Source: Blastocladiella emersonii ATCC 22665
Lineage: Eukaryota > Fungi > Blastocladiomycota
DNA length: 64,000 nt
Assembly: GCA_025594325.1 (NCBI GenBank)
Contig: JANHCV010000009.1
Span: 1,178,001-1,242,000 of the forward strand
Direction of reading: 5' to 3'
Of this stretch, positions 36,304 to 59,936 are shown one piece after another. Numbering within the stretch: the first letter of the stretch is position 1; every line of letters starts with the position of its first letter. The notes under the pieces were generated by a model. The model ran no database searches and had not been told where the DNA came from. It saw only the letters and a program-made list of their open reading frames with translations. A program made the position numbers and the translations under genes.

Positions 36304-36329
36304 TGCCGTATCCCTTAAGGGATACGGCA
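36304..36329. other. Terminal 26-bp perfect palindrome TGCCGTATCCCTTAAGGGATACGGCA
   Basis: Read directly from the sequence; self-complementary. Confidence 0.95.
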
Positions 36330-37039
36330 CATGGCTGCCCTTAGGGACTTCGCCTCTGGACTCTATCCACCCAGGCTAACCCACGTGATATCTCATTGCT
36401 TACCCCGAGTGACTCATAATGAATATAGCGATATCCTTAGGGATTTCGCCACCCGGATCGGAGGCCGAAGGCCGAAGCAGGTGGGCGGGGGGAGGGGGGA
36501 GGGGGGAGCGGCGATCACATGCCCCAGACGCGCAACGCAATGCGACCACGGAGTCACTCTATGAGCCGGCCCACGACTTGGTCGGCGACTTGGTTGCAGC
36601 AATAGGCCCTTGAAGGCTCTCGGAATAATTCCACCAGAGGTCGGCGGTCAGTCCAAGAACGCGAGCAGCGACCCAGGTCAGCGACCAGCCCCAGATGGCT
36701 CTTGATGGCCGCCCCAAACTGGACCGGGTTGGAGCTCACTGGACCGGGTTCAAAGACAACCCGGTCCATGAAATTCGCTTGGGGTAAGCCATGGACCGGG
36801 TTGACCGGGTTGACCGGGTTGTTTAAAGTAACAGTGTAGTGAAAAGGGGGGGAGGGACCGCTCCAGTGCCACTCTTCCCCCCCCCCTTTCAAATCCCTAA
36901 AGGTCAATCGACCCCCTCAACCCGGTCCACCCAGTCCATGGCTTACCCCGAGCGAATTTCAATCGACTTGGTCCATTGAACCTGGTCCATGGCTTATGGC
37001 GAACGGCTCAAAGGGCAGGCAACCCGGTCCAGGCTGCCG
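36304..37039 (+). repeat. Left terminal inverted repeat (~736 bp)
   Basis: Reverse complement of 50364-51089 by eye alignment. Contains repeated GGACCGGGTT/AACCCGGTCC motifs and a 12-bp local duplication absent from the right copy. Confidence 0.9.
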
Positions 37040-37108
37040 TGAACGGTCGCTGCAAGTACAGTAAACAAAAGGTACAAAGTTGTATTCACAAAGGAGTCTC
37101 TGGACTCG

Positions 37109-39415
37109 TTACATCTTGTCGTCGGACAGCTCAACTGTGTACGGCCCGCGGTACTTGTAGATGCGAAGCTTGCGGCGATTCACGGTGCGACGCGTCACCT
37201 CAAAGAGCTCCTGCTTGTTGGCCGGGTTGACTTCGCGCTTGATGTACTCACCGAACTTGGTCTGCGACATGGACAAGCGGCCAGGGAAGCGCTTCTTGGC
37301 GTACTTGCGGTAAAACTCGTAGAACGCGTCTGCCTCGAGCTCCTGCACAACTTCGACCTGGCGCGTGTGGTCCAGGAGGTTGAGCGGGAAGCCGCCGTAC
37401 TCCATGATGTCCATGGCCGGCGCGGGAACCGGCTCCAGTGCCGCCATGATGGCGTTGTTGCGGGCCTGGTTGCGCGAGAACTTGGACAGCGTCAGGTGCA
37501 AGAGGTCGAGGCAGAGGATGTAGGTAAAGATCTCGTCGGCGTGCTCCTTGACAAACGCGTTGAGCTCGCCAAAGTAGTTCTCGTCCTGGCACTTGATGTT
37601 GGACATCTTGAGGACGAACTCGCGGCAACCAGTCTTGGTGAGTGGCAGCACATTGCAGTTGTTGGTCGCGATCATAAAGTTGTTGACGTTCTTGACCTCC
37701 TTGCGTTTCATGTACTTTTCGTTGACAATGAGCTTGTCCTCGGTGACCATGCTCTTGAGCTTGTCAAACGCGTTCTTGAGCTTGGCTGGCTTGCTGGAGG
37801 GCATCTTGTCAAACAGCACGAGCATCTTGTGGGCGATCTCCGAGTTGAACTCGCCCTTGAGCCACGTTGGCCCGTTGCTGATGGACACCGTGTTCTTGCG
37901 GCCAATAATGTACTGGGCCAGAAGGTGGTAGAACTTGCCCTTGCCCACGCCCTCAAGACCCGTCAGCAGCAGCATCACGCCATTGGCCTTGCCTGTGGTG
38001 AGCAGGCACTGGATCCACTTGAGGACATACGCGTACTCTTCCTTGTTGCCGCTGCAGACCACGTCGCAAATGTACTCGAGGTACATGACAATCAACTCGG
38101 GCTCAATGTCGTGGCCAAGGTCTGTGGCCGCAAACCCGTAGAACGTGTTAAAGTAGTCGACCACGAGGCCGTTCTGGTGAGACGGGCCCCACTGCGGTTT
38201 GTGCATGTCAAAGATGAGCGCCTTGACCTGTGGAGCGTACTTGATGGCCCCCGTGCTGCACGCCTTCTTCACGTTGTCCTCGCCGTTGGTGTCCCAGGCG
38301 TCAGTCACGGTGCGGCGAAAGTACATCTCGCCGACCAGGTCCTTGTGGACAAACTTGCCCACGTACTTGATCACGGCCTCCTTCCACGACTGCTTGTCCT
38401 CGTCCACCTTGCGGCTGAGGTAGTGGGTGATGACCTTGCCGATCCAGTTGTTGTCGTAGTGCGGGTCACGCTCAAGCTGCACGGCAACAAACGCGGCCGG
38501 GTCCTTGCAAAAGTTGGGGAGCTTGCCCTTGTCCTTGGACTCAGGCACCGTGATCTCCTTCTCGTCCCACTCCACCTCAAAGCCCGTGTACTTGAGCGTG
38601 TTGGCAGACATCTTGGCAAGCAGCTCGGCGTTGACGCAGTCGTCCTTCTTGACCATGAACCCGTCAAACACAAGCACGCTTGGCACAAGGTTGTTGGCAC
38701 GGGCAAAGTCAATGGCGCGCATCAGGAGGATTGACTTGACAGCCTGGAACAGGTTGGAGAGCACTGAGCCCTTGTTCATGGTCTTGTCTGCGCGAGGCTT
38801 GGACGCCTTGACAACGTGCGGAAAGTCCTTCTCAATCAGCTTGTACAGCGAGCCGTACAGCATGTGGTGGAAGGCTGCAAGCTTGGGGTGCACCGCGTTG
38901 CAGTTGACAAACTCATTGAACAGCATTGAGAGGAACTCCTGCTTATCCCCGAGCCCCCACTTGGCCAGCACGGCCGTGCGGTTGGCGAGGTACTGGTCAA
39001 AGACGCCGTGGCCAAGGTTGTAGTGCTGGCAGACGCCGCAGAGGATCGACGGCGCCGCGCCCTTCATGTCAAGGTCCTGGAGCACGCCCTTGGCCAGCGG
39101 GCTGCGGATGAGGTCCTTGCTGAAGCTCTGGAGCGACGGCGACGTGGCGTAGAGTCGGCCAAACTTCTTCTTGACCAAGGTTGACCGCGTGGTGAACAAG
39201 TACACGGTCTCCTTGCCATCGCCGTAGCTCGCCTTGGCCAGCGCCGCGTAGGCCTTGAGCTTCTTCTTGACCTCAGCGTCAATGCCCGAGTACCGCGCGC
39301 AGAGCCCGTCAAGCACGTCCTTGTTGTAGTACTCGTGCAGCACGACCTGGCCCGAGTCCATGAACATGGACTTGGTGTAGTCGAGGGTCTTGGCGATCTT
39401 GGTTAGCTGGGGCAT
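37109..39415 (-). CDS. TVpol (PolA-related primase-polymerase) fused to SF3 helicase (~768 aa), probably inactivated by point mutations
   Basis: N-terminal GRLY...SLQ, DLDMKGAAPSIL and VFDGFMV motifs; C-terminal Walker A GLEGVGKG, degenerate Walker B LFDKM and NFMIATNN. ATG 39415 (MPQLTK). Confidence 0.8.
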   Translation of the reverse strand: MPQLTKIAKTLDYTKSMFMDSGQVVLHEYYNKDVLDGLCARYSGIDAEVKKKLKAYAALAKASYGDGKETVYLFTTRSTLVKKKFGRLYATSPSLQSFSKDLIRSPLAKGVLQDLDMKGAAPSILCGVCQHYNLGHGVFDQYLANRTAVLAKWGLGDKQEFLSMLFNEFVNCNAVHPKLAAFHHMLYGSLYKLIEKDFPHVVKASKPRADKTMNKGSVLSNLFQAVKSILLMRAIDFARANNLVPSVLVFDGFMVKKDDCVNAELLAKMSANTLKYTGFEVEWDEKEITVPESKDKGKLPNFCKDPAAFVAVQLERDPHYDNNWIGKVITHYLSRKVDEDKQSWKEAVIKYVGKFVHKDLVGEMYFRRTVTDAWDTNGEDNVKKACSTGAIKYAPQVKALIFDMHKPQWGPSHQNGLVVDYFNTFYGFAATDLGHDIEPELIVMYLEYICDVVCSGNKEEYAYVLKWIQCLLTTGKANGVMLLLTGLEGVGKGKFYHLLAQYIIGRKNTVSISNGPTWLKGEFNSEIAHKMLVLFDKMPSSKPAKLKNAFDKLKSMVTEDKLIVNEKYMKRKEVKNVNNFMIATNNCNVLPLTKTGCREFVLKMSNIKCQDENYFGELNAFVKEHADEIFTYILCLDLLHLTLSKFSRNQARNNAIMAALEPVPAPAMDIMEYGGFPLNLLDHTRQVEVVQELEADAFYEFYRKYAKKRFPGRLSMSQTKFGEYIKREVNPANKQELFEVTRRTVNRRKLRIYKYRGPYTVELSDDKM

Positions 39416-39539
39416 GGCCGAGTAGTTACTGTTGAGCAAAGAAAAAAGCATTGTACTTTGATGCGGAAAAACGCAGTCTGGGAGCAGGGGCAGGGCCGTG
39501 TACTTGAAGTGCCGCAATTATTGCTATTGCCGCTGGCCA

Positions 39540-39630
39540 TGACCTGACCCTGACCCTGACCCAGCTGCCCTTGCGTGACCTGACCCTGACCCTGACCCAG
39601 CTGCCCTTGCGTGACCTGACCCTGACCCAG
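39540..39630. repeat. 36-bp tandem repeat x2.5 built of TGACCC hexamers
   Basis: Unit GACCTGACCCTGACCCTGACCCAGCTGCCCTTGCGT. Confidence 0.85.
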
Positions 39631-39640
39631 ACACGACCTC

Positions 39641-40070
39641 CCCCATGAGCCCGACTTGGGAGCCAATCGCGTCTCATGTCACGATCCTTGAACCGTGACC
39701 TGGGCAGTGACTGAGGGCAAAGTCACCAACCCCCCATGCTCCCAACTTGGGAGCCAATCGAGTCTCAGGTCACGATCCTTGAACCGTGACCTGGGCGGCG
39801 ACTGAGGGCAAAGTCACCAACCCCCCATGCTCCCAACTTGGGAGCCAATCGCGTCTCAGGTCACGATCCTTGAACCGTGACTTGGGCAGCGACTGAGGGC
39901 AAAGTCACCAACCCCCCATGCTCCCAACTTGGGAGCCAATCGCGTCTCAGGTCACAATCCTTGAACCGTGACCTGGGCAGCGACTGAGGGCAAAGTCACG
40001 GACCCCCCATGCTCCCGACTTGGGAGCCAGTAGGGTCCGAGGTCACAAACCTCTCAAACCGTGACCTGGG
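39641..40070. repeat. 91-bp tandem repeat x~4.7 with two internal palindromes per unit
   Basis: The CCCCATG anchor recurs at 91-bp spacing (ATG at 39645, 39736, 39827, 39918, 40009). Confidence 0.9.
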
Positions 40071-40195
40071 CCCTCCCACGGTCCATGACTTGCCACCACC
40101 CTGACCCTGACCCAGGCCCAGCTACCCAGAAAAAAGAACGTTGCGTTCAAACGCACTTGAGCCCATGGAGCCTTTTTGTTGACAGTCAGTAAACC

Positions 40196-41346
40196 ATGGC
40201 GCTTGACTCTCTTGCCTCCCAGGTCGCCATTGCCCTTGCTCAGCACTTTGCTGCCAATGTAGTGCACCAAGTGCTCGATGGTATCAAGCCGCTGCTGGCA
40301 TGCTGGCATCCTTTGACAAGCGGCTCAAGGGAGTTGAGACCAGCCTCGCCGCGCTGGCTGCAGTGTCACATAACTGCAATCACTGTCCCAATCACACCCC
40401 CGTCGACGAGTCTGGTGAGCCCATGGACACTGACCCCCAGGTCAAGTACGCGCAGATGACCAAGGAATCCATTGCGGCGTGCATCAACGCGCGTGTTCAG
40501 AACAAGCACGGGGAACTGGTTGAGCTGAGCGACACGGACAAGGCCAAGACATCCCGCGTGCTCTGTGCCTTTGCCAAGTCGGGCATAGACATTGAAGACG
40601 TTGATGCCGTGTCCAAAGCTGTGGCAGCGTACCGCGCGTCCAAGGGCAAGCAGGGGCTGCAGGTTGAGACGCTCAAGGCCCTGGCCAAGTACTGCACCTG
40701 GAATGGTCAGCCTGAACTCGGGGCCAAGTACACAGAGGCCAAGAAGCAGGACGCTGCCGACTTCCGCGACGCGTGCAAGGAACTCGAGTCTGGTGCGCTC
40801 CCAAGCCGTGACGCCATTTGCACTGCTATTGTTGATGCAAAGGGCTGGGACTCAGGCACGGGGCTTCTGCGTCTGTACCTCCAAGTTGTGAGTGCAGTGC
40901 GCAGCGACCCTGCGTTCCTGACCACAAAGCCAATCACTGGGTACCCGTACTACAACCCAGAGACCCAGATTCTGGCCGGCGATGTCATTGTCAAGACAGA
41001 GGGCTGTGGCTACAACTTCTCGCACACAGTTAGTGAGCCCAAGGTCGCCGCCGCTCTCAAGCGTATCATTGCCCAGCGTCTCGCCAAAGGCCATGACTTT
41101 GTCTTCAACAACTACACCCGCGAGGAGCTCAAGGACACCATGCTCTGCAAGAGGGTTAGCAACACCTGGTGCAAGTCAATTCACCAGGCTGCAGAGACAG
41201 TTGGCTTTGAGGATGGCGGCGTGGCAGTGATCCGCCGTATCTCCACCAGTGAGAACTTTGCTGCACAGCAAGCTATTGCTGACTGCGCACACAAGATGGG
41301 TCACAGCGTCCCTGTTGCCTTGACCTACTACATGACGCCTCAGTAA
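40196..41346 (+). CDS. Tyrosine recombinase / protelomerase-like protein; 8-bp duplication at 40294-40309 shifts the N-terminus
   Basis: Catalytic-order motifs AVRSD (R), VIVKT (K), VIRRI (R) and MGHSVPVALTYY (H...Y). The ORF from 40300 gives 348 aa; removing one GCTGGCAT copy gives a continuous ORF from ATG 40196. Confidence 0.7.
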
Positions 41347-41374
41347 TCCTCTTGTCTCCGCCTTTGTTAATACA

Positions 41375-42487
41375 ATGTATGCCCACAAAGAGCCGCTCAC
41401 AGACGCACAGCAAGCATTCCTGACAGACTTGTACTACAAGCACAGCCACGTAGGTGTTGGCATCCGTTGGCTCTTTGACATTGTGTCCAGAGAGAACACA
41501 GGGAAGCACATCTACTGCGCCCAGCTTGAGAGATGGCTCGGCGAACAGTCTGTGTGGCAGCAGTACAAACGCGCACCTCAGAAGCGCCAAGACATTTGAA
41601 GCATCAACTCAACAAGTCCTGGCTGCAACTTTCAGCTCGACCTCATTGACATGGGCGAAAACGGTACGTACAAGGGCTTCCATTACATTCTCACGTGTGT
41701 CAACCTGGCGAGCCGCCACGTCTACCTCCAACCCATCAAGACCAAGGACAAGACGCGGGAAGCATGGTCCAGCGTGGTTGCCAAGCACAGCCTTGCACCT
41801 GCCACGATCCAGACGGACAATGAGACCGAGTTCTTTGGCATAGAGGCCGGGACCGAGGCCAAGCACATCAAGGGCAAGGCAGGAGTGCCATACAGTCAAG
41901 GTGTTGTTGAGCGTATGAACGGGACCATCCGCCGGATGCTCACACCGTGGCTGTCCATCCCGGGCAACAACGACTGGCCCAAGCACCTCGAGACCATTGA
42001 ATCTGTGATCAACAGCAGCAAGTCGAGGGCCACGGGCAGGGCGCCCAACGAGTTCCATGACATGCCCCGCAAAATGGCCAAGGAAGAGCTCAAGGCAATC
42101 CAAGCTGCCAAGGGCAAGCCAGAAGGCAACCCTCTGAGCGCGTTGTTGAAGGTAGGGACCCAGGTCCAAGTCCGCGAGCCGTACAAGACTGCCATGGAGG
42201 CCAAGGGGAAGCCGGTCTGGTCGCCAACTGTGAGCCAGGCCCAGGTCGTGCGCAAGGGGTCGGGCGTGAGCAATCCAAGCTACAAGGTCCAAGGCCTCAA
42301 GGGCTTCTATCCACACAGCGACGTCCAGCCAGTCACAGCGACCCAGGACCCGCCAGCAAGGCAGCGCGTAGGTCCAAGTCTTCCAAGGCTCCCTGCTGCG
42401 CGCACCCCGGTCACGCCAAGGGAGCCCTCGACCCGGGTCAGGCGCGTCCCAGTCCAAGTCCAAGAAAAGTGGGACCTTGGGCTTTAG
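41375..42487 (+). pseudogene. Retroviral-type (rve, DDE) integrase with one in-frame TGA at 41597
   Basis: FQLDLIDM (D), IQTDNETEF (D), SQGVVERMNGTIRR (E), and a Polinton-type C-terminal LKVGTQVQV...WS...Y block. ORFs 41375-41599 and 41651-42487 are in the same frame. Confidence 0.9.
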
Positions 42488-44427
42488 AGCAGGGTCCAGT
42501 AGCTTTGAATGATGACCTGGCAGTTGTTGGCAATTGCGACCAATGGGATCCAGATGAAAGAGTAGCTCTTGGCCGCGTCAAGGTACTCAATGCTCGAGAA
42601 CTGAAGGAACTGGACGTTGCCTTCAGCGCGGCACCCAGTGACAAGCGACACTGCAATCATGTCCGTCATATTGTACAGCGCAAAGTTCACAGTGTGGGCT
42701 CCAGGGAGCGCGCCGTTTGCGTAGTAGCCCTTTGCATGGACGAGGTAGTAGCCACTGACAGGGGGTTTGACACATCCATTGATCACAGACGTGAACGCGC
42801 CTGCCGTGGACTGGAACGCAAAGGTGGCCGGGCCCGTCAATGCTGTGCCGCCAATGATCTTGCTGCCCGTGGTCACTCCGTTTGTAGAGCGGTGCTTGGC
42901 CTGAGCGACATACCAGGTCATGCCAGACTGCAAGTCAACGTACGCCTTGTTTGCCGCGTCGGTGCCTGCCACTGGAGTGAGGTCAAGGGTGAGCTGCCCT
43001 GTGAAGCGACCAGTGCCATTGACGCGGAGCTTTTCTGTGCCAAGCGTCGCCGAGCCCACAACCACGTTGCCGCCACCTGCCACAAGGGAGACCCCACCCG
43101 TGGTTGCAGACGCAATCTCAATGTTACCCGCCGCTGTGCATGCCAGGTTGCTTCGCAGTACGCCTGCCTGCTTAAAGTCGACGTACGTCAATGTATTGGC
43201 AGCCAAGTCAAAGACAAGGTTTGCGCTTGTGGCATTCTGGACCAGGACGTTGGGCACAGTCAGTTGCTTGCCAACTCCAAGACCACCAGCAATGGTGACT
43301 GCTCCAGTGCTTGATGTCAAACTGTCCGTCGTACTTGCAAAGGCAAAGGCAGCGCCAAGCCCAAGGGTGGACTGGGGGAGCGTGCCAGCGACCGAGGCTG
43401 CGCTCACCGCTGTGACCTTGGCCGAGACGTCGGGGAGTTGTGCCAGGTCAATGGTCCCTGCGAGCTTGGCTGAGTCAATGCCGGATGCCAGCTTGGCGTT
43501 GGTCAGGGTCCCGTCTGCAATGCGGGCAGGGTCAAGGATCCCAGTGAGCTTGACTGCTGACACGTCTGTAACCTTGGCGTCCGTGACTGCACCTGCTGCC
43601 AGGTGGGAAGATCCAATGGACCCGACGTTGAGCTTGGCCCCGTCAATGCCAGTTGCCAGCTTGGCGTTGGTCACGGCCGCGTCTGCCAGGACCGAGGTGC
43701 CAACTGTGCCCGCTGCCAGCTTGGACCCGTCGATGCCAGCTGCCAGTTTGGCGTTCGATACGGCACCGTCTGCCAGGGCTCCCGTCCCAATAGTCCCTGC
43801 AACGAGCTTGGACCCAGACACGGACGCGACCTTGGCATCTGTGACTGCCAGGTCAATGAGAGCCGCCGTGCCGACTGTGCCTGCCACAAGCTTGGACCCA
43901 GACACGGACGCGACCTTGGCATCAGTCACTGAGCCGTCTGCCAGGACTGAGGTCCCAACTGTGCCTGCCACGAGCTTGGACCCGGACACGGACGCAACCT
44001 TGGCATCTGTCACTGAGCCGTCTGCCAGGACCGAGGTTCCAACGGCTGGGAGGTTGGACGCACTGAGCACGCCCACGACCTTGGACGCAGACACAGTGTC
44101 CAGCTGAGCATCGACGAGCTTGCCTGTGACCTGCCCTGCTGTAATCGTGGCGACCTTGTTGGCCGTGACGCTGGCTGGGAGCAGCTGTACCGTGCCAACC
44201 GACTTGACATAGAGCCCAGCTGCGCCCACGCCAAGGGTCTGGTTGTCGACCTTGGTCGAGACAGTGGTCCCTGAGACTGCCACGCCAGGGCCAGCAACAG
44301 GTGCGCCAACCGTGGCGTACACGGCACTGATGGCCGCGTCAACGTAGGCCTTGGACACGTCCGGGACCCCCGTGGTAGACACGGTCGGAGACGCAGTACT
44401 TGAGACGTTAAAGATATTCTTGACCAT
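42484..44427 (-). CDS. Putative virion fibre/spike protein (647 aa) with repeated shaft and possible C1q/TNF-like head
   Basis: Repeats such as VGTSVLADGSVTDAKVASVSGSKLVAGT, a SKAYVD/NKAYVD motif near both ends, and a beta-rich C-terminus with PPVSGYYLVHAKG. Confidence 0.65.
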   Translation of the reverse strand: MVKNIFNVSSTASPTVSTTGVPDVSKAYVDAAISAVYATVGAPVAGPGVAVSGTTVSTKVDNQTLGVGAAGLYVKSVGTVQLLPASVTANKVATITAGQVTGKLVDAQLDTVSASKVVGVLSASNLPAVGTSVLADGSVTDAKVASVSGSKLVAGTVGTSVLADGSVTDAKVASVSGSKLVAGTVGTAALIDLAVTDAKVASVSGSKLVAGTIGTGALADGAVSNAKLAAGIDGSKLAAGTVGTSVLADAAVTNAKLATGIDGAKLNVGSIGSSHLAAGAVTDAKVTDVSAVKLTGILDPARIADGTLTNAKLASGIDSAKLAGTIDLAQLPDVSAKVTAVSAASVAGTLPQSTLGLGAAFAFASTTDSLTSSTGAVTIAGGLGVGKQLTVPNVLVQNATSANLVFDLAANTLTYVDFKQAGVLRSNLACTAAGNIEIASATTGGVSLVAGGGNVVVGSATLGTEKLRVNGTGRFTGQLTLDLTPVAGTDAANKAYVDLQSGMTWYVAQAKHRSTNGVTTGSKIIGGTALTGPATFAFQSTAGAFTSVINGCVKPPVSGYYLVHAKGYYANGALPGAHTVNFALYNMTDMIAVSLVTGCRAEGNVQFLQFSSIEYLDAAKSYSFIWIPLVAIANNCQVIIQSYWTLL

Positions 44428-44447
44428 GTTTAACCTTAAGCAACAGA

Positions 44448-44699
44448 ATGATTTCCAGCGACCATGACCTGAGCCTGGACAAGTGGCGGGAGCACCTCGC
44501 CGGGACCATGCCCGTTCCAAGCAGCTGGTACAACAAGAGCGACAAGGACAAGGCCAAGTGGCTACGGAAGCGCGACTGCAAGGCCAACCGGTACACGCAC
44601 GTCGACAACGAGGCAGCGCGGGCCGAACGGGTCAAGATCCGGATCTACAAGGCACTCAACGCCAAGCGCCGGGACCAGGGGGCAAATAGCACCGTCTGA
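44448..44699 (+). CDS. Small basic hypothetical viral protein (83 aa)
   Basis: ATG-started ORF with the same codon style as neighbouring viral genes, divergent from the fibre gene. Confidence 0.5.
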   Translation: MISSDHDLSLDKWREHLAGTMPVPSSWYNKSDKDKAKWLRKRDCKANRYTHVDNEAARAERVKIRIYKALNAKRRDQGANSTV

Positions 44700-44811
44700 G
44701 GGACAAAAGGCACCTGCCACGGGGAAAAAGGTACGCCCAATGGTGCAAGATGCACGGGGAAAAAGGTACCGACAGGGGGACGCTTTATTTTTGGTCCATA
44801 CAGTAACTATC

Positions 44812-46527
44812 ATGGGCCAAAGAACAGTACCAGATCTACTTGCAAGAGTGACCAATGCAACCAGCGGGCGCATCACGGCCGAGCACCTTGCAGGGCAGAA
44901 GCTCAAGGCAACCATTGATGGCCGCAAGTACACGTTCCCCAATGCCAAAGAGCTCCTTGACGTCTGGGTGCCTTACATCCTTGCCTTTGACTACAAGGTG
45001 ACGCCCGAGAGCTATGCCAACGACTTTGGCTGCAAACAAGGCGACTCGCTGTTCTACCTCAGGCACCAGGACGGCGTCACTAGGTACAAGGTCAAGGACC
45101 TCCAGGAGCACGTCCAAGATACGCTTAAAGCGTGGGAAGAGCACCAGGCAACAGGCAAGGTCACTTGAGTCCCAGTTGCTCCACCAGTGGCAAGCCCCAG
45201 ACCAGAGGCCCCCAAGTTGGCCATGGACAGCAACAGGGGCAGCAGCGAAGAGGAACGCGACGAGCTGGCAGAAGAGATCTCACAAGCCCTGGACGTCATT
45301 GATGAGGACGCTGTACCAGACCACTTGCTCCCTGTGCCCGTCCGGCCAGTCATGCCCAAGCAGTACCCAGTCGAGGCCAGCGACTATGTTGGTCAAGACA
45401 TTGAAGAGTACGGCGCCATGATCCCTGGCCAGTACCTGATCCAGAATGACAATGACGGTGGCAACGACTCGCCCCCAAGGCTTGACAACGGCACCCGCAA
45501 CCTCGTGGTCATGCCACCAAGCTACGGCCCGGACGTGGCACAGCGGCAAGGCGTGTACAACGAGGGTCACGTCCACCCAGCCATGGACGAGGCACGCATG
45601 ATCGAGGGCTCCAAGGACTTGCAGGTCTACAACCCCGAGCGGGCGCTGACAACCACGGACAACATGGAGGTCGACGTTGTCCAGAACTTTCAACAGTTTA
45701 ACCAGTTTGTGTACAACAGCTCCACGCAGCAGAACACGCAGAACGTCAACATGCGGCAGTTCATCACCCAGTACAAGAACAACTACTACGAGCAGAACGT
45801 GGACATGCGACAGCAAATCCTGGTCCAGTACAACAATGACCCGAACGTCATGGCTGCGCTCAAGCTCATTGCCTCGCAGTTTGCCGGGTCCCAGGTCATG
45901 CAGTACCAGGCGTACCAGGCGCTCATCAAGCAGTCGGTGGCCGCTCAGGGACTGGCCATGGACGCATTTGCCAACCTCGCGTCCGGGATTGTGGACACGC
46001 TCCGAGCCAAACGCAACGACTTTGTCCGCCAGATTGACGCTGGCAACTGCGCGCTTGTGTCTGAGATTGCCACGGGCATGTCCTCGGCTCTCAGCAACCA
46101 GCAGGTGCTCATGAACCAACTTGCAAGCGGCGTCCAGGGCGCGATCCAAGGGCAGACCCAGAGCAACAAGGCCATGACCAAGACGCTCCAAGACCTTGGG
46201 TCCAAGCTGGACACGATCCCTGCACCCCAAGTCATTGTCCAGCCTGCCGACACAAGCGGCCTCAAGGCCATGATCAGGGAGCTGGCCGCGCAAAACAATT
46301 CTGGCGGTAGTTCTAAGAAGACCGACATGCTCCTCGAACAGATCCTCAAGCAACTGGGCTACAGGAAGCCAACTGACGCGAAGCTGTTCACAGACAAGCG
46401 GGCAGCGGGTAGCGGGCTGACAGCGCCCAAGATCCAGCGTCACCAGAAGATCCCTGAGCGGCCTGTCAAGCAGGTCCGCGAGACCCCAAGGCGCAGCGGC
46501 ATTGTGCTTGACCTCGGCTGGGACTGA
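44812..46527 (+). pseudogene. Hypothetical viral protein (~571 codons) with one in-frame TGA at 45166
   Basis: ORFs 44740-45168 and 45187-46527 are in the same frame, separated only by TGA (KVT*VPVAPP). N/Q-rich central part. Confidence 0.6.
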
Positions 46528-46553
46528 CGCCCTTTTTTGTTGGCAGTCTTTAA

Positions 46554-47351
46554 ATGTACGACATTGTTGCCATTGACAACGGCTTTACACGCAACGACAA
46601 CGGCGAACCGCTGCCAATCCCCAAGCACCCGTTCACCATGAACGTCATTGGTGCCAAGGGTCAGGGCAAGTCGACGCTGATCGCAAACATGGTCTGCTTC
46701 CCACACTTTTACAAGGGCCAGTTTGACAACGTCTGGGTCTTTAACCCGACGTTCCACGCCGACAACGAGTACGAGTACATTGCCAGTCAACCAATCCTGT
46801 GACCGCCCAAGAAGGAGCGCAACGTGCTGGACCCCCAGGAGCGCGACCCGGACCGGCTCAAGATCAAGCCAGGGTGCATTGTCACGGACCCCGAGCAGTT
46901 CATCCCAACCCTGCTCAAGATGCGCCAGGACCTGACCAAGACATTTGAAGAGTCTGGCAAGAAGGCGCTCCAGGACCAGCTGCTGATCATCGACAACGTG
47001 CTTGGGCTCAAGCTGCTGAGCCACAGAACGCTGACCAACTTTCTGTGCAACTCGCGGCACTTGAAGATCAGCTGCATCATTGGCGTCCAGCAGTGGTGTG
47101 CCCTGCCCAAGACTCTGCGCATCAATTGCAGCTACAGCGTCGTCTACCCAATCTATGACAAGACCAAGGTCCAGACGCTGCACAAGGAGATTGGGTCGCA
47201 GTTCGACCTCAAGGAGTTTGAGGCCATCATTGAACAGCTCTTTGACACGCATACTGGCAACACAAAGCGACGCTTCCTGGGCGTCAACAACCAGAACCCG
47301 CCCAAGTACCGGCTCGTAGACAGCTTCAGCAAGTGGATTGTCAAGGGATAG
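46554..47351 (+). pseudogene. FtsK/HerA-family (A32-like) genome packaging ATPase with in-frame TGA at 46800
   Basis: Walker A GAKGQGKST, degenerate Walker B LLIIDN, and SRHLKISCIIGVQ...LPKTLRIN. The two ORFs are in one frame. Confidence 0.9.
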
Positions 47352-47390
47352 ACCGCCAACTTTTTTTGTTGCAGTGTTCTAAACTAAACC

Positions 47391-48611
47391 ATGTCCAGTA
47401 CCAACGCCCAGTTCTCGCAGGTCCTGTCCAAGACTCTCCCTCCCGAGATGTCATTCAACCTGCCCAAGGAGTCCGTCTATGCCGAGCGCCAGACCGTCCA
47501 GTTCACGGCTCAGGGCGGCCCTGAGTTTGCTCCTGGCAACAGCATAAGCGTCCTGCTCCCGCCGCGCGACGACATGATGGACACGCACTGTACTTTCCTG
47601 CAGTTCTCGGCCAAGACCACAGACGCCAACGTCGCTTTTTGCAATGGTATCTTCAGCGTCATTGACCGTGTCCGCATCTACAGCGCGTCTGGTGCCCTAC
47701 TCGAAGAGCTCCCGTACTACAACCTGCATCAGCGCATTGAGGCCGACGTGACGGTCCCCCAGTACCTCAAGGACTCGTGTCTTGGCGTGGCACAGGGCTA
47801 CTTTGCGTCTGGCGCTGACAAGTTTGCCGTCTCGTCTGGGCTGCACCGGTACATGCTGCCCATCAAGTCCGCCCTGCTGGCGAACCAGAAGCACCTCCCA
47901 ATGAAGTACATGGGCGGCATCCGCGTTGAGTTCACCCTTGCACCTGGCAGCGACGCCTGCGTGGTCAAGAACAATGCAATCCCGGGCTACACAGTCAAGG
48001 ACGTCTGCATTGTCTCGGACCTGATCAAGCTCAACGACCAGCAGATCGCGGTCATGGACGCGGCCTTCAAGAAGCAGGGCCTCAAGCTCTTTGGCACGAC
48101 CTACAACCACCACTTCCTGAACTACTCAGTGCCCAACTCGACGCTCAACATCTCGGACCGCTCGGCCTCACAGAAAGACATCCTGCTGTCGTTCCGCAAC
48201 AATGCCGTGCTCAACGACAATGCCAAGGACTCGTTCCTTTGTGCCAAGACCATTACATCGTACCAGTTCAGCGTGGCCGGCCAACTCTTCCCTCAGTGAC
48301 CCATCCGCTGTGACGACTATGCGTCCGAGGCGTTTGTTGAGCTGACCAATGCCTTCCATGGCCACGTCATTGGCGCTGGCCTCACAGTTGACAAGTTCAA
48401 CGCGCCGGCCGAGGGTACCTTTGTTGTCGGCCGTGACCTTGAGTCAAGTCGCACCGTGGTCAGCGGCGACAAGTCTTGCAAGAGCCAGGCCGTGGACATG
48501 CAGGTGATCCTGACTTCAAGCGTGGCCCCGAACCAGCGCGTGGACGCCTTCATTGGCATCGACGTGGTCTACGAGTTCCTGCCAACCGGCGAGATCAACA
48601 TCTACAAGTAA
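47391..48611 (+). pseudogene. PLV-type double jelly-roll major capsid protein (406 codons) with in-frame TGA at 48297
   Basis: SVIDRVRIYSASGALLEELPYYNL near the N-terminus. The frame continues past the TGA through GTFVVGRDLE...SG to EINIYK*. Located between ATPase and minor capsid gene. Confidence 0.8.
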
Positions 48612-48653
48612 CGGCCCTGTCCTTTCTTTTCTTGCGTAGAGTTAAACCCCGCC

Positions 48654-48920
48654 ATGATCTTCCGTAACCTCTGGACCAACTTTAGCAATGTGCTCGGCCA
48701 GGTTGGGTCCTTTGTCAACAAACACATGCCAACCGTCCTCAAAGGCGTCAAGACCGTGTCCAAGTTCTTTGAGCGGTCGCACAACCCCGCCGTGAGCTCC
48801 ATTGCGCAGATGGTGACCAAGGGCGCGGACCTTGCCCAAGACATTCACACCTGGTACAACCAACCAACAAGCGAGATCTTTGAGGCAGACGCTGACGACA
48901 CGGGGACAGCTGTACAATAA
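48654..48920 (+). CDS. Small protein (88 aa) with N-terminal amphipathic helix
   Basis: MIFRNLWTNFSNVLGQVGSFVNKHMPTVLKGVKTVSKFF; sits between MCP and minor capsid gene. Confidence 0.6.
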   Translation: MIFRNLWTNFSNVLGQVGSFVNKHMPTVLKGVKTVSKFFERSHNPAVSSIAQMVTKGADLAQDIHTWYNQPTSEIFEADADDTGTAVQ

Positions 48921-48938
48921 ATTGTTGTCTTTGTTTAA

Positions 48939-49670
48939 ATGTCCGAGTACAAGACGCTGACCATCTGCAGCCGTGACCTCAAGAACGGCATCCTGTACCT
49001 ACCACAACCCCTGTCCGTGCGCGGCGTCAAGGTCAACTCGGCGTACCTCTGCAACAGCTGGCACAAGGCCAACAAAGTGTACCTGACCCAGAGCCGTGGC
49101 GCGCTGACGTTCCCGGGCACCATCACCGTCCCTGATGGCAACTACACGGTCGAGACGTTCACGGCCACGCTCAAGAGCCTGCTCAACAACGCGCCCTCAG
49201 CGTACCTCTGGCAGGGCACATGGGACGTCCAGGTTGACTCGACTACCCAGAAGATGCGCCTGGCCAACGACACGGTTGACTTTACAATTGGAACAGGGAC
49301 GGCGTCGCTGAACGTCCACATGGGCTTTGTTGGAGCGTATGGCTACAGCAAGGTCCAGTACGCGTCGGCGCTGGTCAACATCTCGCCCATCAACCTGCTT
49401 CACGTCTACTCGCGCAACCTTGGCACCCGGCTTGCGGACAACATGTACAGCGCGTACCCACAAGACAACGGCGTACTTTGTAGCATCCACGTCACGCAAC
49501 CCTTTGGCAGCTGGTTTGAGCATCGACCACACATGGGTGACTACTTTCGCTTTGACGCGCAGGGACAGGCCCAGCAGATTGACTGTATTGACATTGACGT
49601 GGTAGACAAGAACCTGCGCTCTGTCAACTTTCTCGGCCAACCCTTCTACGTCGAGCTCGCGTTCATCTGA
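48939..49670 (+). CDS. Minor capsid (penton) protein (243 aa)
   Basis: VPDGNYT insertion motif and C-terminal IDCIDIDVVDKNLRSVNFLGQPFYVELAF pattern typical of PLV/virophage pentons. Confidence 0.8.
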   Translation: MSEYKTLTICSRDLKNGILYLPQPLSVRGVKVNSAYLCNSWHKANKVYLTQSRGALTFPGTITVPDGNYTVETFTATLKSLLNNAPSAYLWQGTWDVQVDSTTQKMRLANDTVDFTIGTGTASLNVHMGFVGAYGYSKVQYASALVNISPINLLHVYSRNLGTRLADNMYSAYPQDNGVLCSIHVTQPFGSWFEHRPHMGDYFRFDAQGQAQQIDCIDIDVVDKNLRSVNFLGQPFYVELAFI

Positions 49671-49701
49671 CGTTGACTTTAATTGTTGTCGTACTGTAAA
49701 C

Positions 49702-49797
49702 ATGATCCTCGAGACGCTCCTTGTTGCAACCAACGCCCTGATCCTCGTAGCCAACCTGGCCATTGTTGGGTACAAAGCAAAGTATTCCGCGCCGTAG
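49702..49797 (+). CDS. Predicted 31-aa single-pass membrane micropeptide
   Basis: MILETLLVATNALILVANLAIVGYKAKYSAP*, preceded by the TTGTTG...TAAAC-ATG motif seen upstream of other viral genes. Confidence 0.5.
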   Translation: MILETLLVATNALILVANLAIVGYKAKYSAP

Positions 49798-50035
49798 AGT
49801 AAGCAAAAACATGTGCTTTAAATTCTTTCTTCAAAGGCATAGTAAGACACAGGACAATGAATACTGGCTCTACTGCATCAACGCCCCGCGCACCTTCCAC
49901 GAGCATCCCTTGGACTGGCCGTCCGGGCCCCCAGTCAACAGCCAACTACACGGCCATCCACAACGTGGCCCTGCCAGGTGCCAAGGTTGTGTACACTGTC
50001 TGCTTTGAATAGATCCTTCAAGTTAACTTGGTTAG

Positions 50036-50215
50036 CTACCTTGAAGCCTTTACTGGTCGCTCTCAGACTACCCGCCAGTATGTGTACTTGTGCCCACAGC
50101 ACGGGTACACAACTTGGACCCACAGCAGCTCATTGTCATGGACCCAGCTGGGAGCATCATAGTGATCGCATGGCGGCTTGGGCAGGGGGACGATCTCTTT
50201 GATACAGCCTCGCAT
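50036..50215 (-). CDS. Small Cys/His-containing viral protein, possibly with internal TGA at 50063
   Basis: MRGCIKEIVPLPKPPCDHYDAPSWVHDNELLWVQVVYPCCGHKYTYWRVV*ERPVKASR*; upstream TTGTT...GTAACT-ATG motif. Confidence 0.35.
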
Positions 50216-50363
50216 AGTTACAGTAGTCCAACAAAGTTTAAATTGACAAACGCATTCAACGCACTTGGCATGACGTAGCAACGGGACACACTACGGCATT
50301 GTGGACCCGACCAGGGCCCCTGCCCACTTTTGAACAGCTCGCCGTAAGCCATGGACCGGGTCG

Positions 50364-51089
50364 CGGCAGCCTGGACCGGGTTGCCTGCCCTTTGAACCGT
50401 TCGCCATAAGCCATGGACCAGGTTCAATGGACCAAGTCGATTGAAATTCGTTCGGGGTAAGCCATGGACTGGGTGGACTGGGTTGAGGGGGTCGATTGAC
50501 GTTTAGGGATTTGAAAGGGGGGGGGGGAAGAGTGGCACTGGAGCGGTCCCTCCCCCCCTTTTCACTACACTGTTACTTTAAAACAACCCGGTCAACCCGG
50601 TCAACCCAGTCCATGGCTTACCCCAAGCGAATTTCATGGACCGGGTTGTCTTTGAACCCGGTCCAGTGAGCTCCAACCCGGTCCAGTTTGGGGCGGCCAT
50701 CGAGAGCCATCTGGGGCTGGTCGCCAACCTGGGTCGCTGCTCGCGTTCTTGGACTGACCGCCGACCTCTGGTGGAATTATTCCGAGAGCCTTCAAGGGCC
50801 TATTGCCGCGACCAAGTCGTGGGCCGGCTCATAGAGTGACTCCGTGGTCGCGTTGCGTTGCACGTCTGGGGCATGTGATCGCCGCTCCCCCCTCCCCCCT
50901 CCCCCCGCCCACCTGCTTCGGCCTTCGGCCTCCGATCCGGGTGGCGAAATCCCTAAGGATATCGCTATATTCATTATGAGTCACTCGGGGTAAGCAATGA
51001 GATATCACGTGGGTTAGCCTGGGTGGATAGAGTCCAGAGGCGAAGTCCCTAAGGGCAGCCGTGTGCCGTATCCCTTAAGGGATACGGCA
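50364..51089 (-). repeat. Right terminal inverted repeat (~726 bp) ending in the 26-bp palindrome (51064-51089)
   Basis: Reverse complement of 36304-37039. Confidence 0.9.
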
Positions 51090-51094
51090 AGAGA
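51090..51094. repeat. Right target-site duplication AGAGA
   Basis: Matches 36299-36303. Confidence 0.9.
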
Positions 51095-51414: not shown

Positions 51415-51676
51415 TGTGCTCGTTGTGTGCTCGAGTATGAGCTTGGCCAAGAGAGTGTCGACCTCGCGCAAACGGTGAGTCAGCCTGGATCAACGAGCAT
51501 CACGTGTGAATGATTGCCACGCCAACTCATCCGCGCCGAGCTGCGCGCCGAGGGAGCTGTTCCGCACCAACTGGCAGGATTGACTTGAGTGCTCGTGAAG
51601 ACCCTCAAGTTTGCACAGATTAATCAAAACCACAGAGTTTTTTACTCGACGTTTCCCAATACGAACGGAACCGCGA

Positions 51677-53425: not shown

Positions 53426-53434
53426 GTTGATGTT

Positions 53435-53461
53435 GATGATGATGATGATGATGATGATGAT
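53435..53461. repeat. (GAT)9 microsatellite just upstream of the hypothetical gene's start codon
   Basis: Read directly from the sequence. Confidence 0.9.
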
Positions 53462-53879
53462 CCGTGTGATGTTGCGTGGGGGAGGCGAGATCGACAGCGA
53501 CAAAAGATGAGCGTGTCCTGCTCGCGTCCAGCTTCTCCCCGGCGATTGTTTCACTTTGGTGAAAGCTCACGTGCGCATGAGAGTCGCGCCCTGAATTCCT
53601 CAAGGTATCGGTAGTACGGTAGGGCTCTCGGGCGAGCCGCTTGAGAGCAACCGCTGCGCTCATGGGGGCCGCGCAGAAGCCGAGCGTTCGTGTCCGAGTT
53701 ATTGTCAGTCGGCCCTGACCCAGCCTGCTTGTTGATGTCGTGACTGCGTGGCGTCCATCTAGTGGACGTGGCTTCGCGGCAACTTGTCGCGATTCGAGCG
53801 GAAAAGGCGACGAATCGACGCGAGGTGACGAAAAGCGTACGACGCGTCAGCTCCACCGCTCCGCCTCGGTCAACCCCTC

Positions 53880-53971
53880 TTGACGAGAAACACATGAAAA
53901 TGGATCCGGACTTGATGCAACGCGCTAGGGGTGTGTGCGTTCCACACTCTGTCTCAGCAGTAGGCGACTAG
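53880..53971 (+). pseudogene. 5' stub of a family B gene (MKMDPDLMQ)
   Basis: ATGAAAATGGATCCGGACTTGATGCAAC is near-identical to family B starts; similarity ends after about 9 codons. Confidence 0.6.
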
Positions 53972-56200: not shown

Positions 56201-56448
56201 CAGAAACCCCAGCTTGAGCGCGAATTCAGCTCGACAGAAACTCAGCCTACTGCTGAGAACGTACGTTTGAGCAGGTACGCACTGGCATCGCCCGAAGCCA
56301 AACATGATGGAGCAGGCGAAGCAGCGCATCTTTCATGTGCACGAGTTACACGTGTGTGGCTGGGGCTTGAGGCTTGAAACTTGAACGCCGACTCCTGGCG
56401 ACTTCGACTCTCCCCTCCTATGAACGCTCGCCGGCACATGTAAAACAA

Positions 56449-59404
56449 ATGGAAACCCACTGGGACTCGGCGCAATATGCGCCCATGTATCAGGGTCACC
56501 CGTCGGGCCCGTTGCCCGGGTGGCCCGGCCTCCACTGCACCGCCGCGCCTCCGCACCTGCAGCCTCAGCCTTACCCACACGATTACCCCCAAGCTTACTC
56601 TCATTCGGCAGCACCTGCTCCCGAGCACTCGTCGTCTGCTTCCGGTTCTGGCACAACATTGGATCTCGACTTGCTCCACTTCGCGCAGCAACGGCTCGTC
56701 GTCCCGACCCTTACTGCACTCGGCGACCTGAATACCGCAACTTGGCTCCGCGTGCTGGAGACAGATCTCTTCGCTCTCAACTTACCGCGCCGCCTTTGGC
56801 ACCTCGCCGCGTTTTGCTACGCCGACGGCGAATTTGCGCGTACTCTGCGGCTCCGAGCGCAGGAACAGTTTGACGCAGCCGGCGCAGCGGGTGATATGTG
56901 GCTGCTCGGTGTCCGACCCGCCATTCTCGAGCTTCGTCAGTACGCATCCTCCGACCCAAAGCCAAGTCCGGCGGTGGCGGTGGTGACCGCGACCGCGTTT
57001 GGCGATTATGCGTCGAACGGGTACTCGATGTGGCCCACCCCGCTTCAGCACCAGCAGCAGCCAGCAGCTGTCGTGAACGAGTGCGAGCCAGCGCATTCCA
57101 CATCGGCGGTTGTTTCGCAGCTGGATGGCTCGTTCTCAAACCGGGGCTCATCGGTTGCCTTGGACCCCGAGCCTTTGCCCGCTTCAGCACTCGACTTTTC
57201 GTTCGCTTCGACAGCTGAGGCCGCTCCCGAACTTGACCTTGCGTCGATGACCAGTAGCGCCGACGGTAGCGGCTCCACTTCTTTCCCTATCGATCAAGTC
57301 GCATCGGACACAACGCCTTCTGACGATTTCGCTCCCGAGTCGGACGATGACAACTTGACTTCCGCCTACTCGTTGTCCAGTTCCGAGTTCGATCCCGTCG
57401 CGACAGTTGATTCTGAGCCGACCCACGCTGGCGAAATCATCACCGCCGCCGGTCCAGTCTCCAAGGCAGGCTTGCCTCGCTCACCGAGCCCGCTAGCGCG
57501 TTGGCCCACCCCTCCGCCGCTTTCGGACTCGCCTGTACTCCCGACTAGCTCACCGAGCCCGCTTGAACGCCCGAAGTCGCCGGTGCGGTCCACACTTTCG
57601 GACGACAAGGATTCAGCTTCATTGTACGGCGGCGGTGATTCTCTGGTCGACGGCGCTGCTTCAATCGGCGGCGACAATGACGCTTCATTCCACGGCGACG
57701 GTACTGCTTCGGCTCTCGGCGACGATTCCGCTTCTTTCCACGGCGACGACCTTGCATCGTCTGACGACACTGCTTCTTTCGCGTCTGCCTCGGACTCGTC
57801 AAGCTGGCGTCGCAGCTCATTCGCGAGCGTTGACGAGGTGAGCGCGGTCCCCGTTCCCGCCGCTATCGACACCGTTGCGGATGACCAGTGTGCTCGAGCG
57901 CGATTTGGAGGCTTCGTCCGACTCGGGTCCATTGCCTCTCTCAACGGACGCGACTGATGATACTTTGCAGTCCAAGGAACCTGTCGAAGTCGCGGCGAGC
58001 GCTTCCGCCGATCCAGAGCCTCATTTCGATCTGCTGCGCGACCTCGACGAGCACGGTCTTCCATCGTTCCACCTGATTCCCGCGCCGTGCGGCATGAATG
58101 CTGGTCCGCCGTGGTTTAGTCCACGAATTATCGACATGCCTGGTGTGGTTCCTGGCGTTCCGGTCGTCCGCATTCACCTTGTGCTGGCCACGTCGATTCC
58201 ATTTCACTACTCAGGGCCTGGCCTCTGGGACTTTGACTCAAACAGGATTCCGGCGCACTGCGTCGCTGCCTTTCTACCGGACACGACGTGGGGCTCAGCG
58301 AAGGCTGCCCTCGAGTCTACCGTTGTTGGGTCGTGCATTTTGAACCAGAATCCTGCCTACTGGCGCCTCCCGGGCAACGTTGCGGGCATTGACGCGCGCG
58401 CTTCGATCAACGGGCTTCTCTCGGATCCAGACCCCACGCTTGCGGAGCTCGTTGCTGCAAGCAACCCGAGCAGCAGCGAGAAGAGGCTTTCGCCGGCCAA
58501 AAAGAAGGGCAAGAAGGGTAAACGTGCTGCGGTGTTGACAGCTGCAAGCACGGCCGTGCCTGACGACAACGTAGACCTTGCCTCTGTCGCCGCTGCCCCC
58601 GCGCCCGCAGTGCTCCGAGTCTTGTGTGTTCCACTTGGTAGCGCCTACAAACCGGCGCCATCTGCTCCCAAGGGCGTACCCCTGCCCATCCCACGACACA
58701 TCATCCAGGGGTTCTTGATCGACCTGCAACTCATCTTTATCAAGCTTTACATGGCTCCCGCCGGATCGCGCATGTACTGCCCGTACTGGGTTACGCCAAC
58801 TGAATCTATCTCTACTCTGGTCAGCGCCTGGGCGACCAAGTCCACGTTCTTTGGTACTATCTTCGCCCAGCCGATCGCCTTTTACGAGGAGCGACCAGGC
58901 GAAGCCCCGCGCCGCCTCAGTCCGCGCTTTTCCTTGAAGAGGTTGGGTGTCCCATTTGGTGCCGTGATCGTCATCGAGTACGCGCCTGCAACGAGCAGCG
59001 ATGCCATGTACCGGTCCATGTCGCCAGAGGCAGCAAAGAACCTCATCACCAGGACGCGATCGGATGTGATGCAGGTGTCGAGCCTTTTCCCGACCATGCG
59101 CACTCTCGCAAAGCTTTTGGCGGATTATGACCGCGTGTGGCGCGCCGTAGATACGGCTATGTGCGTCTACTCGATCTCGATCGCGCTCATTCCGGATACT
59201 CGGCGGGATTTGCGCCACAACTACTGCATGGTCGCGCTCAGACGCGTCGCGCCGCTGACGTTTCTCGATTGGGTCAGCGCGTAGACGACTGGCGCGTGGA
59301 ACCGCGAGTTTGACTGGCTGTGCGATCCCGACGCGCCCGCGTTTACAAAGGAGGGACTCAATGAAGTGGATCCTCGCGAAATTCAGGACGAGTGCGAGGA
59401 GTAG
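56449..59404 (+). pseudogene. Family A paralog 8; frame break near 57900 and TAG at 59282
   Basis: ORFs 56374-57957 and 57875-59284; homology continues past the TAG (paralogs have Trp) to TAG 59402. Confidence 0.7.
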
Positions 59405-59910
59405 CGACGAATATATTTGACCCTTTGTAGCCGTACGCGCTGTTTCCCGCGCGAATGAGCTCAGCTCAAGCTAACGCTCAGCTTTGTCAGCCGACGCTTT
59501 AGGCGATAGGTCGCGATTGTGTGGCCAATGGGCAAGCAGAGGACACAAACGGCAGCTGGTCGAGCTCGAGGCAGGCGTGTGTCTAGTCGAGAGATTCTAA
59601 AGTGAGAAGTTGTCGCGACGAGAGTGACAACGAGAAGCGGTCGCGAAAGGGCGAAGCGGACAAGGGCGAAGGCCACGCGTCGCTGCTGGCAGGGCGCATC
59701 GACCCTTACGAACAAATTCGAGCACCTTGACCGCGCCAATGAGAGATTCATGAGTGGCAATCTACATAGACTCGGAGCATGGGAAGACCTCTATGCGTAA
59801 ACGAAGCCTGAGTGCGAAAAGTCGCATGACGGCGGCCGGCTCCCTGCAACTGCAGGATCGGCAGATAACATAATGCTCGCAATAACATTCTATCAGCTTT
59901 GCATTGAGTG

Positions 59911-59936
59911 TGAAGTATCCTTATAAGGATACTTCA
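59911..59936. other. Terminal 26-bp perfect palindrome TGAAGTATCCTTATAAGGATACTTCA
   Basis: Read directly from the sequence; self-complementary. Confidence 0.95.

Follow-up and report, generated by a model that had tools for sequence, protein, structure and literature searches.

The 64,000-nucleotide stretch of the Blastocladiella emersonii ATCC 22665 genome analysed here (contig JANHCV010000009.1, positions 1,178,001 to 1,242,000; hereafter the window, whose own numbering we use throughout) contains two endogenous elements, PLV-1 and PLV-2, which are decayed representatives of two Polinton-like virus (PLV) families. PLV-1 is present in full and spans 14,786 bp (36304-51089), with AGAGA abutting it on the outside at both ends; the second end of PLV-2 lies beyond the window, so that its target duplication and its rve gene fall outside the DNA examined. 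Terminal inverted repeats (TIRs) with a short target duplication and an A32-type packaging ATPase place PLV-1 among endogenous PLVs. A strict-sense Polinton would also encode a protein-primed family B polymerase (pPolB), of which there is none among the PLV-1 open reading frames (ORFs) scanned, a TVpol-like helicase standing in its place; the ends of the element therefore need another solution. Those ends, and the tyrosine recombinase encoded near them, are the subject of this analysis.

Both elements end in a 26-bp perfect palindrome. A sequence-only reading of this DNA had reported three such palindromes, and all three are present where it placed them (Table 1); no other perfect palindrome in the window exceeds 14 bp, and the pattern TG-NN-GTATCC-N6-GGATAC-NN-CA occurs three times in it as against zero times in 100 shuffles. 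Each palindrome has a 10+6+10 layout, the 6-bp centres (CTTAAG in PLV-1, TTATAA in PLV-2) are fully self-complementary and leave no loop, and folding with DNA parameters gives an 11-bp stem in each case (-12.1 and -9.0 kcal/mol). The two families agree at 18 of 26 positions, and their half-sites differ at four of 13 (positions 1, 3, 10 and 11 from the centre), each difference being mirrored. Beyond the tip the best local match between the TIRs of the two families is 11 nt, and otherwise only a short inner motif is common to them. The mirrored changes had been taken as a sign that the structure is under selection, an argument that proves circular: templated copying of an opened hairpin mirrors any change, so that the differences are explained without paired compensatory mutations and are no evidence of selection.

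In each of the two families, several copies have the palindrome as their precise end. This emerges from short-read contigs of four runs from one sample in one study, which is possibly the window's own source and hence not independent of it. Other contigs track the PLV-1 TIR to exactly 51089 and then enter at least two other flanks, while at the PLV-2 end read depth steps at exactly 59911 from 157 to about 1350 (summed, run X2; depth is not a copy number) and at least two other flanks are found at 59911/59910. As the flanks differ, these are separate insertions. The contigs also contain a 58-nt version of the PLV-2 end in which three letters differ. A loose end at 59951 in run X4, which resembles a loxP library adapter, was set aside as an artefact. 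Separately, one contig of run X2 matches the PLV-2 tip (59911-59945), and after 59945 it reads differently for at least 255 letters that include runs rich in G; this may be a third type of end with the same tip, a copy cut short or a mirrored flank.

PLV-1 and PLV-2 were likely inserted by an rve-type integrase, as the sequence-only reading had held: the TG..CA ends and, in PLV-1, the 5-bp duplication (such integrases leave 4-6 bp) and a DDE-type integrase gene (broken, and with weak profile scores) all support it. In cryptophyte PLVs, target duplications accompany rve and not the tyrosine recombinase (Yrec), and PLVs with Yrec only are mostly without them, unlike PLV-1 (PMC12220804; for this and the other papers cited, statements refer to the portions of text and supplement available). 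The target duplication and the TG..CA ends point to rve, and thus the whole palindrome lies inside the transferred DNA.

What the two families keep in common, besides the palindrome, is the recombinase: the PLV-2 type, represented by the paralogues P0018 and P0020, shares 37% identity with that of PLV-1 over 311 aa, while the rest of the TIRs and the helicase halves differ, the helicase parts giving no significant alignment. The expected co-occurrence of palindrome and recombinase thus holds in both families. Two further helicase/recombinase pairs have consecutive locus tags, and relatives of the PLV-2 helicase are present in Allomyces arbusculus. The TVpol label of the PLV-1 helicase fusion is one we presume from its motifs; similarly, we take the products of 47391..48611 and 48939..49670 as candidate major and minor capsid proteins, the latter from its position as well, the former, which in a PLV would be a double jelly-roll protein, having no Pfam, PDB or relevant NCBIfam match. 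An AT-rich metagenome contig (L009, 694-2196) codes for proteins related to the TVpol-helicase and to the capsid candidate, and is likely a free-living relative.

PLV-1 is decayed, with a frameshift in the recombinase gene and one in-frame TGA each in the rve, ATPase and capsid candidate genes. By our own reading of the substitution list, 9 of the 12 substitutions between its TIRs are CpG transitions, and the observed/expected CpG ratio is 0.79 in PLV-1, 1.02 in PLV-2 and 1.23 in host DNA. Together with the three in-frame TGA stops, this base composition suggests methylation-driven decay of PLV-1.

Table 1. Features of PLV-1 and PLV-2 in the window
Feature	Position	Strand	Basis and remarks
Target-site duplication AGAGA, left copy, 5 bp	36299..36303	+	
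PLV-1 left terminal 26-bp perfect palindrome	36304..36329	none	perfect-palindrome scan and pattern count
PLV-1 left TIR, 739 bp	36304..37042	+	
PLV-1 inner look-alike site YCC-N4-GGAY	36338..36348	none	arms like tip, 4-bp centre; motif defined post hoc
PLV-1 second inner YCC-N4-GGAY site	36434..36444	none	
PLV-1 fusion of TVpol-like (family A polymerase-like) domain and superfamily 3/D5-type helicase	37109..39451	-	Pfam DUF5906 E 9e-17; TIGR01613 E 1.6e-6, under cut-off
Tandem repeats, 36 nt x 2.6 and 91 nt x 4.7	39540..40071	none	between divergent helicase and recombinase genes; candidate origin or control region
PLV-1 tyrosine recombinase-fold protein	40196..41346	+	frameshift near 5' end, open frame from 40300; 4 residues beyond catalytic Tyr
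PLV-1 rve-type integrase	41375..42487	+	in-frame TGA 41597-41599; Pfam rve E 0.0014, under cut-off; PDB retroviral integrases E 0.002
Repeat-rich fibre-like protein	42484..44427	-	Pfam Phage_Tail_Tip E 2.5e-9
A32-type packaging ATPase	46554..47351	+	in-frame TGA 46800-46802; Pfam Pox_A32 E 3.2e-8, 33.8 bits against cut-off 22.8
Candidate major capsid protein	47391..48611	+	in-frame TGA 48297-48299; phmmer E 5.7e-18 (one target) to ORF on metagenome contig L009
Candidate minor capsid protein	48939..49670	+	position only; no library match
PLV-1 right TIR, 729 bp	50361..51089	-	
PLV-1 right terminal 26-bp palindrome	51064..51089	none	identical to left; further copies stop at same base
Target-site duplication AGAGA, right copy	51090..51094	+	
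PLV-2 terminal 26-bp perfect palindrome	59911..59936	none	further copies begin at same base
PLV-2 inner YCC-N4-GGAY site	59980..59990	none	
PLV-2 second inner YCC-N4-GGAY site	60005..60015	none	
PLV-2 TVpol-like helicase	60830..63205	-	35% identical to PLV-1 over 228 aa, polymerase-like part
PLV-2 tyrosine recombinase, start	63876..64000	+	first 41 aa identical to paralogues P0018/P0020

Two look-alike sites, YCC-N4-GGAY, lie in the first 150 bp of each family's TIR and none in the next 560 bp, host DNA having 0.057 per 150 bp; judged from a motif drawn up after the data were seen, they suggest a sequence-specific binder common to both families. Inner inverted repeats near the ends, with short tandem units (36769-36961, 56-nt arms 81 nt apart; 60262-60408, 27-nt arms 93 nt apart), are possibly an origin structure.

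Terminal palindromes have recently been described elsewhere. According to a preprint of July 2026, the TIR tips of virophage subtypes 1, 2, 5 and 6 and of PLV subtype 4 of Halocafeteria seosinensis carry palindromes beside the target duplication; the preprint links these with non-pPolB replicases and particular RVE integrases and proposes hairpin priming as an untested model (10.64898/2026.07.28.741278). PLV-1 shares all three features with these elements: a tip palindrome beside the duplication, a non-pPolB replicase and an RVE. The hosts differ (a stramenopile there, a fungus here), as do the lengths (52 nt in subtype 5, 26 bp here), and in the available text the recombinase is assigned no part at the palindrome, and RVE and Yrec are not reported together in any PLV, whereas PLV-1 has both. 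The tips described here are a new, very short variant of this feature. Both the terminal palindromes and hairpin priming, which was the alternative named in the sequence-only reading, are thus already described in that preprint.

Our tentative reading, to which we give more weight than to any other single account, is that the palindrome may be what is left, after opening and copying, of a covalently closed hairpin end that the element's tyrosine recombinase would make; that a hairpin end existed in some form, by any route, seems probable. A free linear genome lacking a protein-primed polymerase would be copied by the TVpol-helicase from inside and round its closed ends, giving head-to-head junctions, and at the symmetric centre of each junction a dimer of the recombinase would make cuts 6 bp apart and reseal the DNA as two hairpins, in the manner of telomere resolvases. 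Integration would start from a nick behind the CA that lies 13 nt beyond the apex (in the hairpin, or in both strands of the junction); the nick would produce a self-complementary 3' tail ending in CA-OH, which rve would join to host DNA, and gap filling would then yield the full palindrome and the 5-bp duplication. The same recombinase could free the provirus with capped ends. We infer each of these enzymatic steps from what can be seen directly, namely the ends, the duplication, the gene content and the predicted fold. A closed end that is opened off-centre and filled in yields a loop-less palindrome, as is established for P nucleotides, and to this extent the hairpin telomere system of the sequence-only reading is supported: a palindrome that has no loop and sits right at the terminus is most simply accounted for by a hairpin origin. 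The part of that proposal which made the recombinase a protelomerase finds no support in the fold ranking and the PF16684 search described below. We nevertheless favour the recombinase as hairpin maker because it is conserved along with the site and appears ill-equipped for four-strand exchange; the centres CTTAAG and TTATAA both have the self-complementary 6-bp form of protelomerase sites, and would be used by the recombinase as such.

The first search for relatives of the recombinase returned seven proteins, 55-94% identical and all named Blastocladiella emersonii proteins. The only family member found without that name or a link to the window is P0016, on a 7.1-kb contig, at about 25% identity. 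A structure model built from 16 sequences (pLDDT 79) for P0001, which is 94% identical to the window recombinase, predicts a bundle of helices at the N-terminus, then a single helix of 28 residues and a catalytic domain. The combination of core-binding bundle and catalytic domain is the predicted architecture of Xer/Cre-type enzymes, and the predicted helix (residues 97-124 of P0001, pLDDT of the block 69-93) would form a long linker between the domains of the kind seen in TelA. The catalytic R, K, R, H and Y have been conserved, another residue stands in for the His of HxxR, and in 16 of 16 sequences the C-terminus follows two to seven residues past the Tyr, so that the alphaN tail helix of Xer/Cre is absent. 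XerA without its tail helix cleaves and cannot recombine (PMC3646895). In TelA a helical linker shapes the hairpin, the His of HxxR is likewise replaced in TelA and topoisomerase IB, and the known protelomerases all cut palindromes 6 bp apart (PMC3558466). The short tail, the predicted long linker helix and the symmetric candidate site are thus the departures of the PLV enzyme from Xer/Cre.

Several comparisons do not discriminate. In Foldseek there is a tie between XerA, TelA, lambda Int and Cre at E 0.006-0.02, with TelA at rank 2 (E 0.0096); the scores of an Atlas cluster with PF16684 (0.93) and of integrases (0.92) are practically equal; profile comparison gave uninformative probabilities (TelN 0.2%, Cre 0.5%, lambda Int 0.2%); and a family-profile sequence search of the PDB returned two unrelated matches only.

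A number of results weigh against the recombinase as hairpin maker. By an exhaustive structural aligner, XerA (Z 10.0), XerH (9.3), topoisomerase IB (8.5-9.1) and Cre (8.9-9.2) all score above TelK (4.8), the alignments covering 239 residues at a root-mean-square deviation of 12.6 for XerA, 237 at 6.7 for Cre (Z 8.9) and 148 at 4.7 for TelK, and TelA is missing from the best 50 matches in both exhaustive structure listings. The ResT-TelK family PF16684 is matched by none of nine proteins at E<=1 and none of five at E<=10, in a search of low power in which no protein reaches the Phage_integrase cut-off. In the comparison that the sequence-only reading had itself put forward, with TelN/TelA/ResT as against Cre/XerC, the aligner thus ranks Xer/Cre and topoisomerase IB above TelK and TelA, Foldseek giving a tie for TelA, and by similarity the recombinase is not in the protelomerase family. 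Its nearest look-alikes are ordinary PLV and giant-virus recombinases, usually taken for integrases: named viral structure matches include proteins of Tetraselmis virus 1 and Hokovirus and the recombinase of a Heterosigma virus, and its embedding neighbours are Preplasmiviricota proteins. Nor does the short tail resemble protelomerases, as TelA (beyond Tyr405) and TelK carry long tails after the Tyr. On our own reasoning the integrase geometry is awkward as well, with a 13-bp stem serving as the viral end and the genome attached where target DNA binds, and no free form has been observed in the contigs, which come from a latent culture and cannot display free hairpin ends. For that reason the lack of joints that switch strand, at the PLV-1 and the PLV-2 end alike, in these contigs is no evidence either way. 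Finally, PLV subtype 4 of Halocafeteria has palindromes and an RVE and no reported Yrec, which argues against a recombinase required in cis, but a Yrec is easily overlooked, Pfam having missed even the window's own divergent enzyme. The fold ranking itself can neither settle nor exclude a hairpin-making activity, because a single residue change shifts TelA towards recombination and few substitutions make it a recombinase (PMC12270096).

Close behind the recombinase-made hairpin ranks self-priming of a parvovirus-like, hairpin-transfer type, which we regard as a somewhat unlikely but serious contender. The ends would then be open and carry the whole palindrome; the displaced 3' end would fold and prime the TVpol-helicase, a nick opposite the fold followed by copying would restore a blunt CA end, an ordinary rve substrate, and the recombinase would do something else, for example insertion into a giant virus. 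No unusual integrase geometry is required, the 11-bp stems are at hand, and this is the model of the Halocafeteria preprint, in which the association of palindromes with non-pPolB replicases and particular RVEs extends to a subtype without reported Yrec; in EMALE04, helicase swaps accompany TIR changes (PMC10945749). However, self-priming requires a nickase that leaves a 3'-OH, whereas a tyrosine recombinase leaves a 3'-phosphotyrosine, and no HUH/Rep nickase family was found among the ORFs scanned, several of which are without assignment. Moreover, the helicase halves and TIRs differ between the families while palindrome and recombinase are constant, and self-priming tolerates a loop, yet both palindrome centres are fully self-complementary.

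The literature takes PLV recombinases to act on circles (PMC12220804), and a lox/dif-like crossover, which we consider unlikely, would follow that pattern: the recombinase would join the two terminal copies, which are also direct repeats, into a circle with one palindrome and leave a lone palindrome in the chromosome, and rve would later cut the circle junction after both CAs, duplicating the site. The best structural matches (XerA, XerH, Cre) and the resemblance of the 10+6+10 layout to a core site speak for it. However, the asymmetric spacer of such sites is missing, both centres being symmetric and hence without direction; in Cre/lox, inversion and excision become equally likely when the centre is symmetric. 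The enzyme lacks the tail helix on which synapsis depends, the circle would contain a perfect inverted repeat of about 1.5 kb, and no lone palindrome was demonstrated in the DNA examined. Least likely of all is that there was no hairpin stage, the palindrome being a symmetric binding site (for integrase, recombinase or origin protein) at an open end, as the recurrence of the tip arms around a 4-bp centre at the inner sites may suggest, or a frozen fold-back repair accident copied passively, accidental annealing being an alternative named in the Halocafeteria preprint: binding needs no symmetry at all 13 positions, including the four that differ between families, and an accident would not preserve length and register across two families with otherwise unrelated TIRs.

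If we return to the recombinase-made hairpin, its closest parallels are the telomere resolvases TelN, TelK, TelA and ResT, which share a palindrome with a self-complementary 6-bp centre, a tyrosine-nucleophile fold, a helical linker (predicted here) and a non-His residue at HxxR (PMC3558466, PMC12270096); the recombinase of PLV-1 differs from them in lacking a profile match, in a structural score below Xer/Cre and in having almost no tail past the Tyr. Phaeoviruses encode a true telomere resolvase with an internal telRL-like site and fold-back reads; there the site is internal and a separate recombinase integrates, whereas here the site is the integration junction and the duplication was left by a DDE integrase (PMC13236599). 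With Xer/Cre and the Yrec of PLVs and virophages (Gezel-14T, TsV S2x, cryptophyte cluster C1), the PLV-1 enzyme shares its best structural and embedding matches and the position of its gene beside the helicase near the genome end, while the missing alphaN tail helix and the symmetric candidate site set it apart from Xer/Cre-type enzymes. Gezel-14T is linear and carries Yrec and TVpol (10.1101/2022.07.28.501842). Mid-GC EMALE virophages of Cafeteria burkhardae resemble PLV-1 in having no pPolB, a long primase/helicase, a tyrosine recombinase, a separate rve clade and short target duplications, and differ in their virophage-type capsid module; the available text and supplement, which give target duplications and no terminal sequences, make no mention of terminal palindromes (PMC8547959). 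The same holds for the available supplement of PMC12220804, with target duplications and no terminal sequences. A paper on entomopoxviruses and PLVs proposes that the recombinase and the helicase both make use of inverted repeats, and refers to dimer resolution in connection with the ends of the poxvirus itself (PMC11296320). Among zoosporic fungi, Spizellomyces punctatus and Allomyces macrogynus have integrated PLVs with capsid, ATPase and helicase genes, the structure of whose ends is not described in the available text (PMC7805220), and nothing on the ends of such elements was found in the available portions of PMC12085832, PMC13533422 and 10.1101/2025.10.09.676808. A literature search that left most subscription papers outside its reach found no paper joining polinton with protelomerase and none joining Blastocladiella with polinton, and the Halocafeteria preprint was its only listing evidently about terminal palindromes. 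A protelomerase role for a PLV recombinase is thus apparently not in print in the literature searched.

PolA/AEP replicases are strongly linked to tyrosine recombinases in such viruses, for a reason termed elusive (10.64898/2026.10.13.758929). The recombinase-made hairpin would address both why replicases of this type travel with a tyrosine recombinase and how ends are copied in linear, TIR-bounded PLVs and virophages without a terminal protein. Taken further, the Yrec of pPolB-less PLVs and virophages in general might be no integrase but a telomere resolvase that evolved independently out of Xer/Cre-like stock, with N15-style hairpin-capped genomes, an rve that opens the hairpin and the palindrome as its footprint, a generalization we consider somewhat unlikely. 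If the recombinase does make hairpins, this would be a second origin of telomere resolvases, a new rve integrase reaction and a small hairpin-making enzyme; if it does not, the locus is one more case of a feature already in the preprint. Either outcome could be approached in a compact test system: the site is 26 bp long and comes in two natural versions, each with an enzyme of its own (37% identity between the two), there are paralogues that appear to be full-length, and the fungus can be cultured.

Searches for related loci outside the genome yielded little. A pattern scan of viral contigs gave five loci, none of them with a perfect palindrome (0 of 5), which we take as chance. Scans starting from the recombinase found none in six and none in two candidate viral stretches and none in 182 metagenome stretches; those starting from TVpol found none in 77 viral stretches and seven in 404 from metagenomes, all seven being fragments without a recognisable genome end. 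A scan from the capsid candidate was negative in all six stretches, and a phage collection held no match to recombinase or TVpol.

The host surroundings of the two elements include two tandem gene families. About seven related unannotated genes, spaced about 2.8-3.7 kb apart, occupy 1-20200, with one more copy at 56371-59339 just left of PLV-2, and the members scanned have no Pfam match. Three other unannotated genes, related to one another and about 2.6-2.8 kb apart, form a second tandem family at 27881-34656, and PLV-1 sits 118 bp upstream of a leucine-rich-repeat gene (34935-36185). Between the two families, the largest subunit of RNA polymerase III is encoded in one long ORF (21088-25614), with a 1475-aa open frame on the opposite strand.

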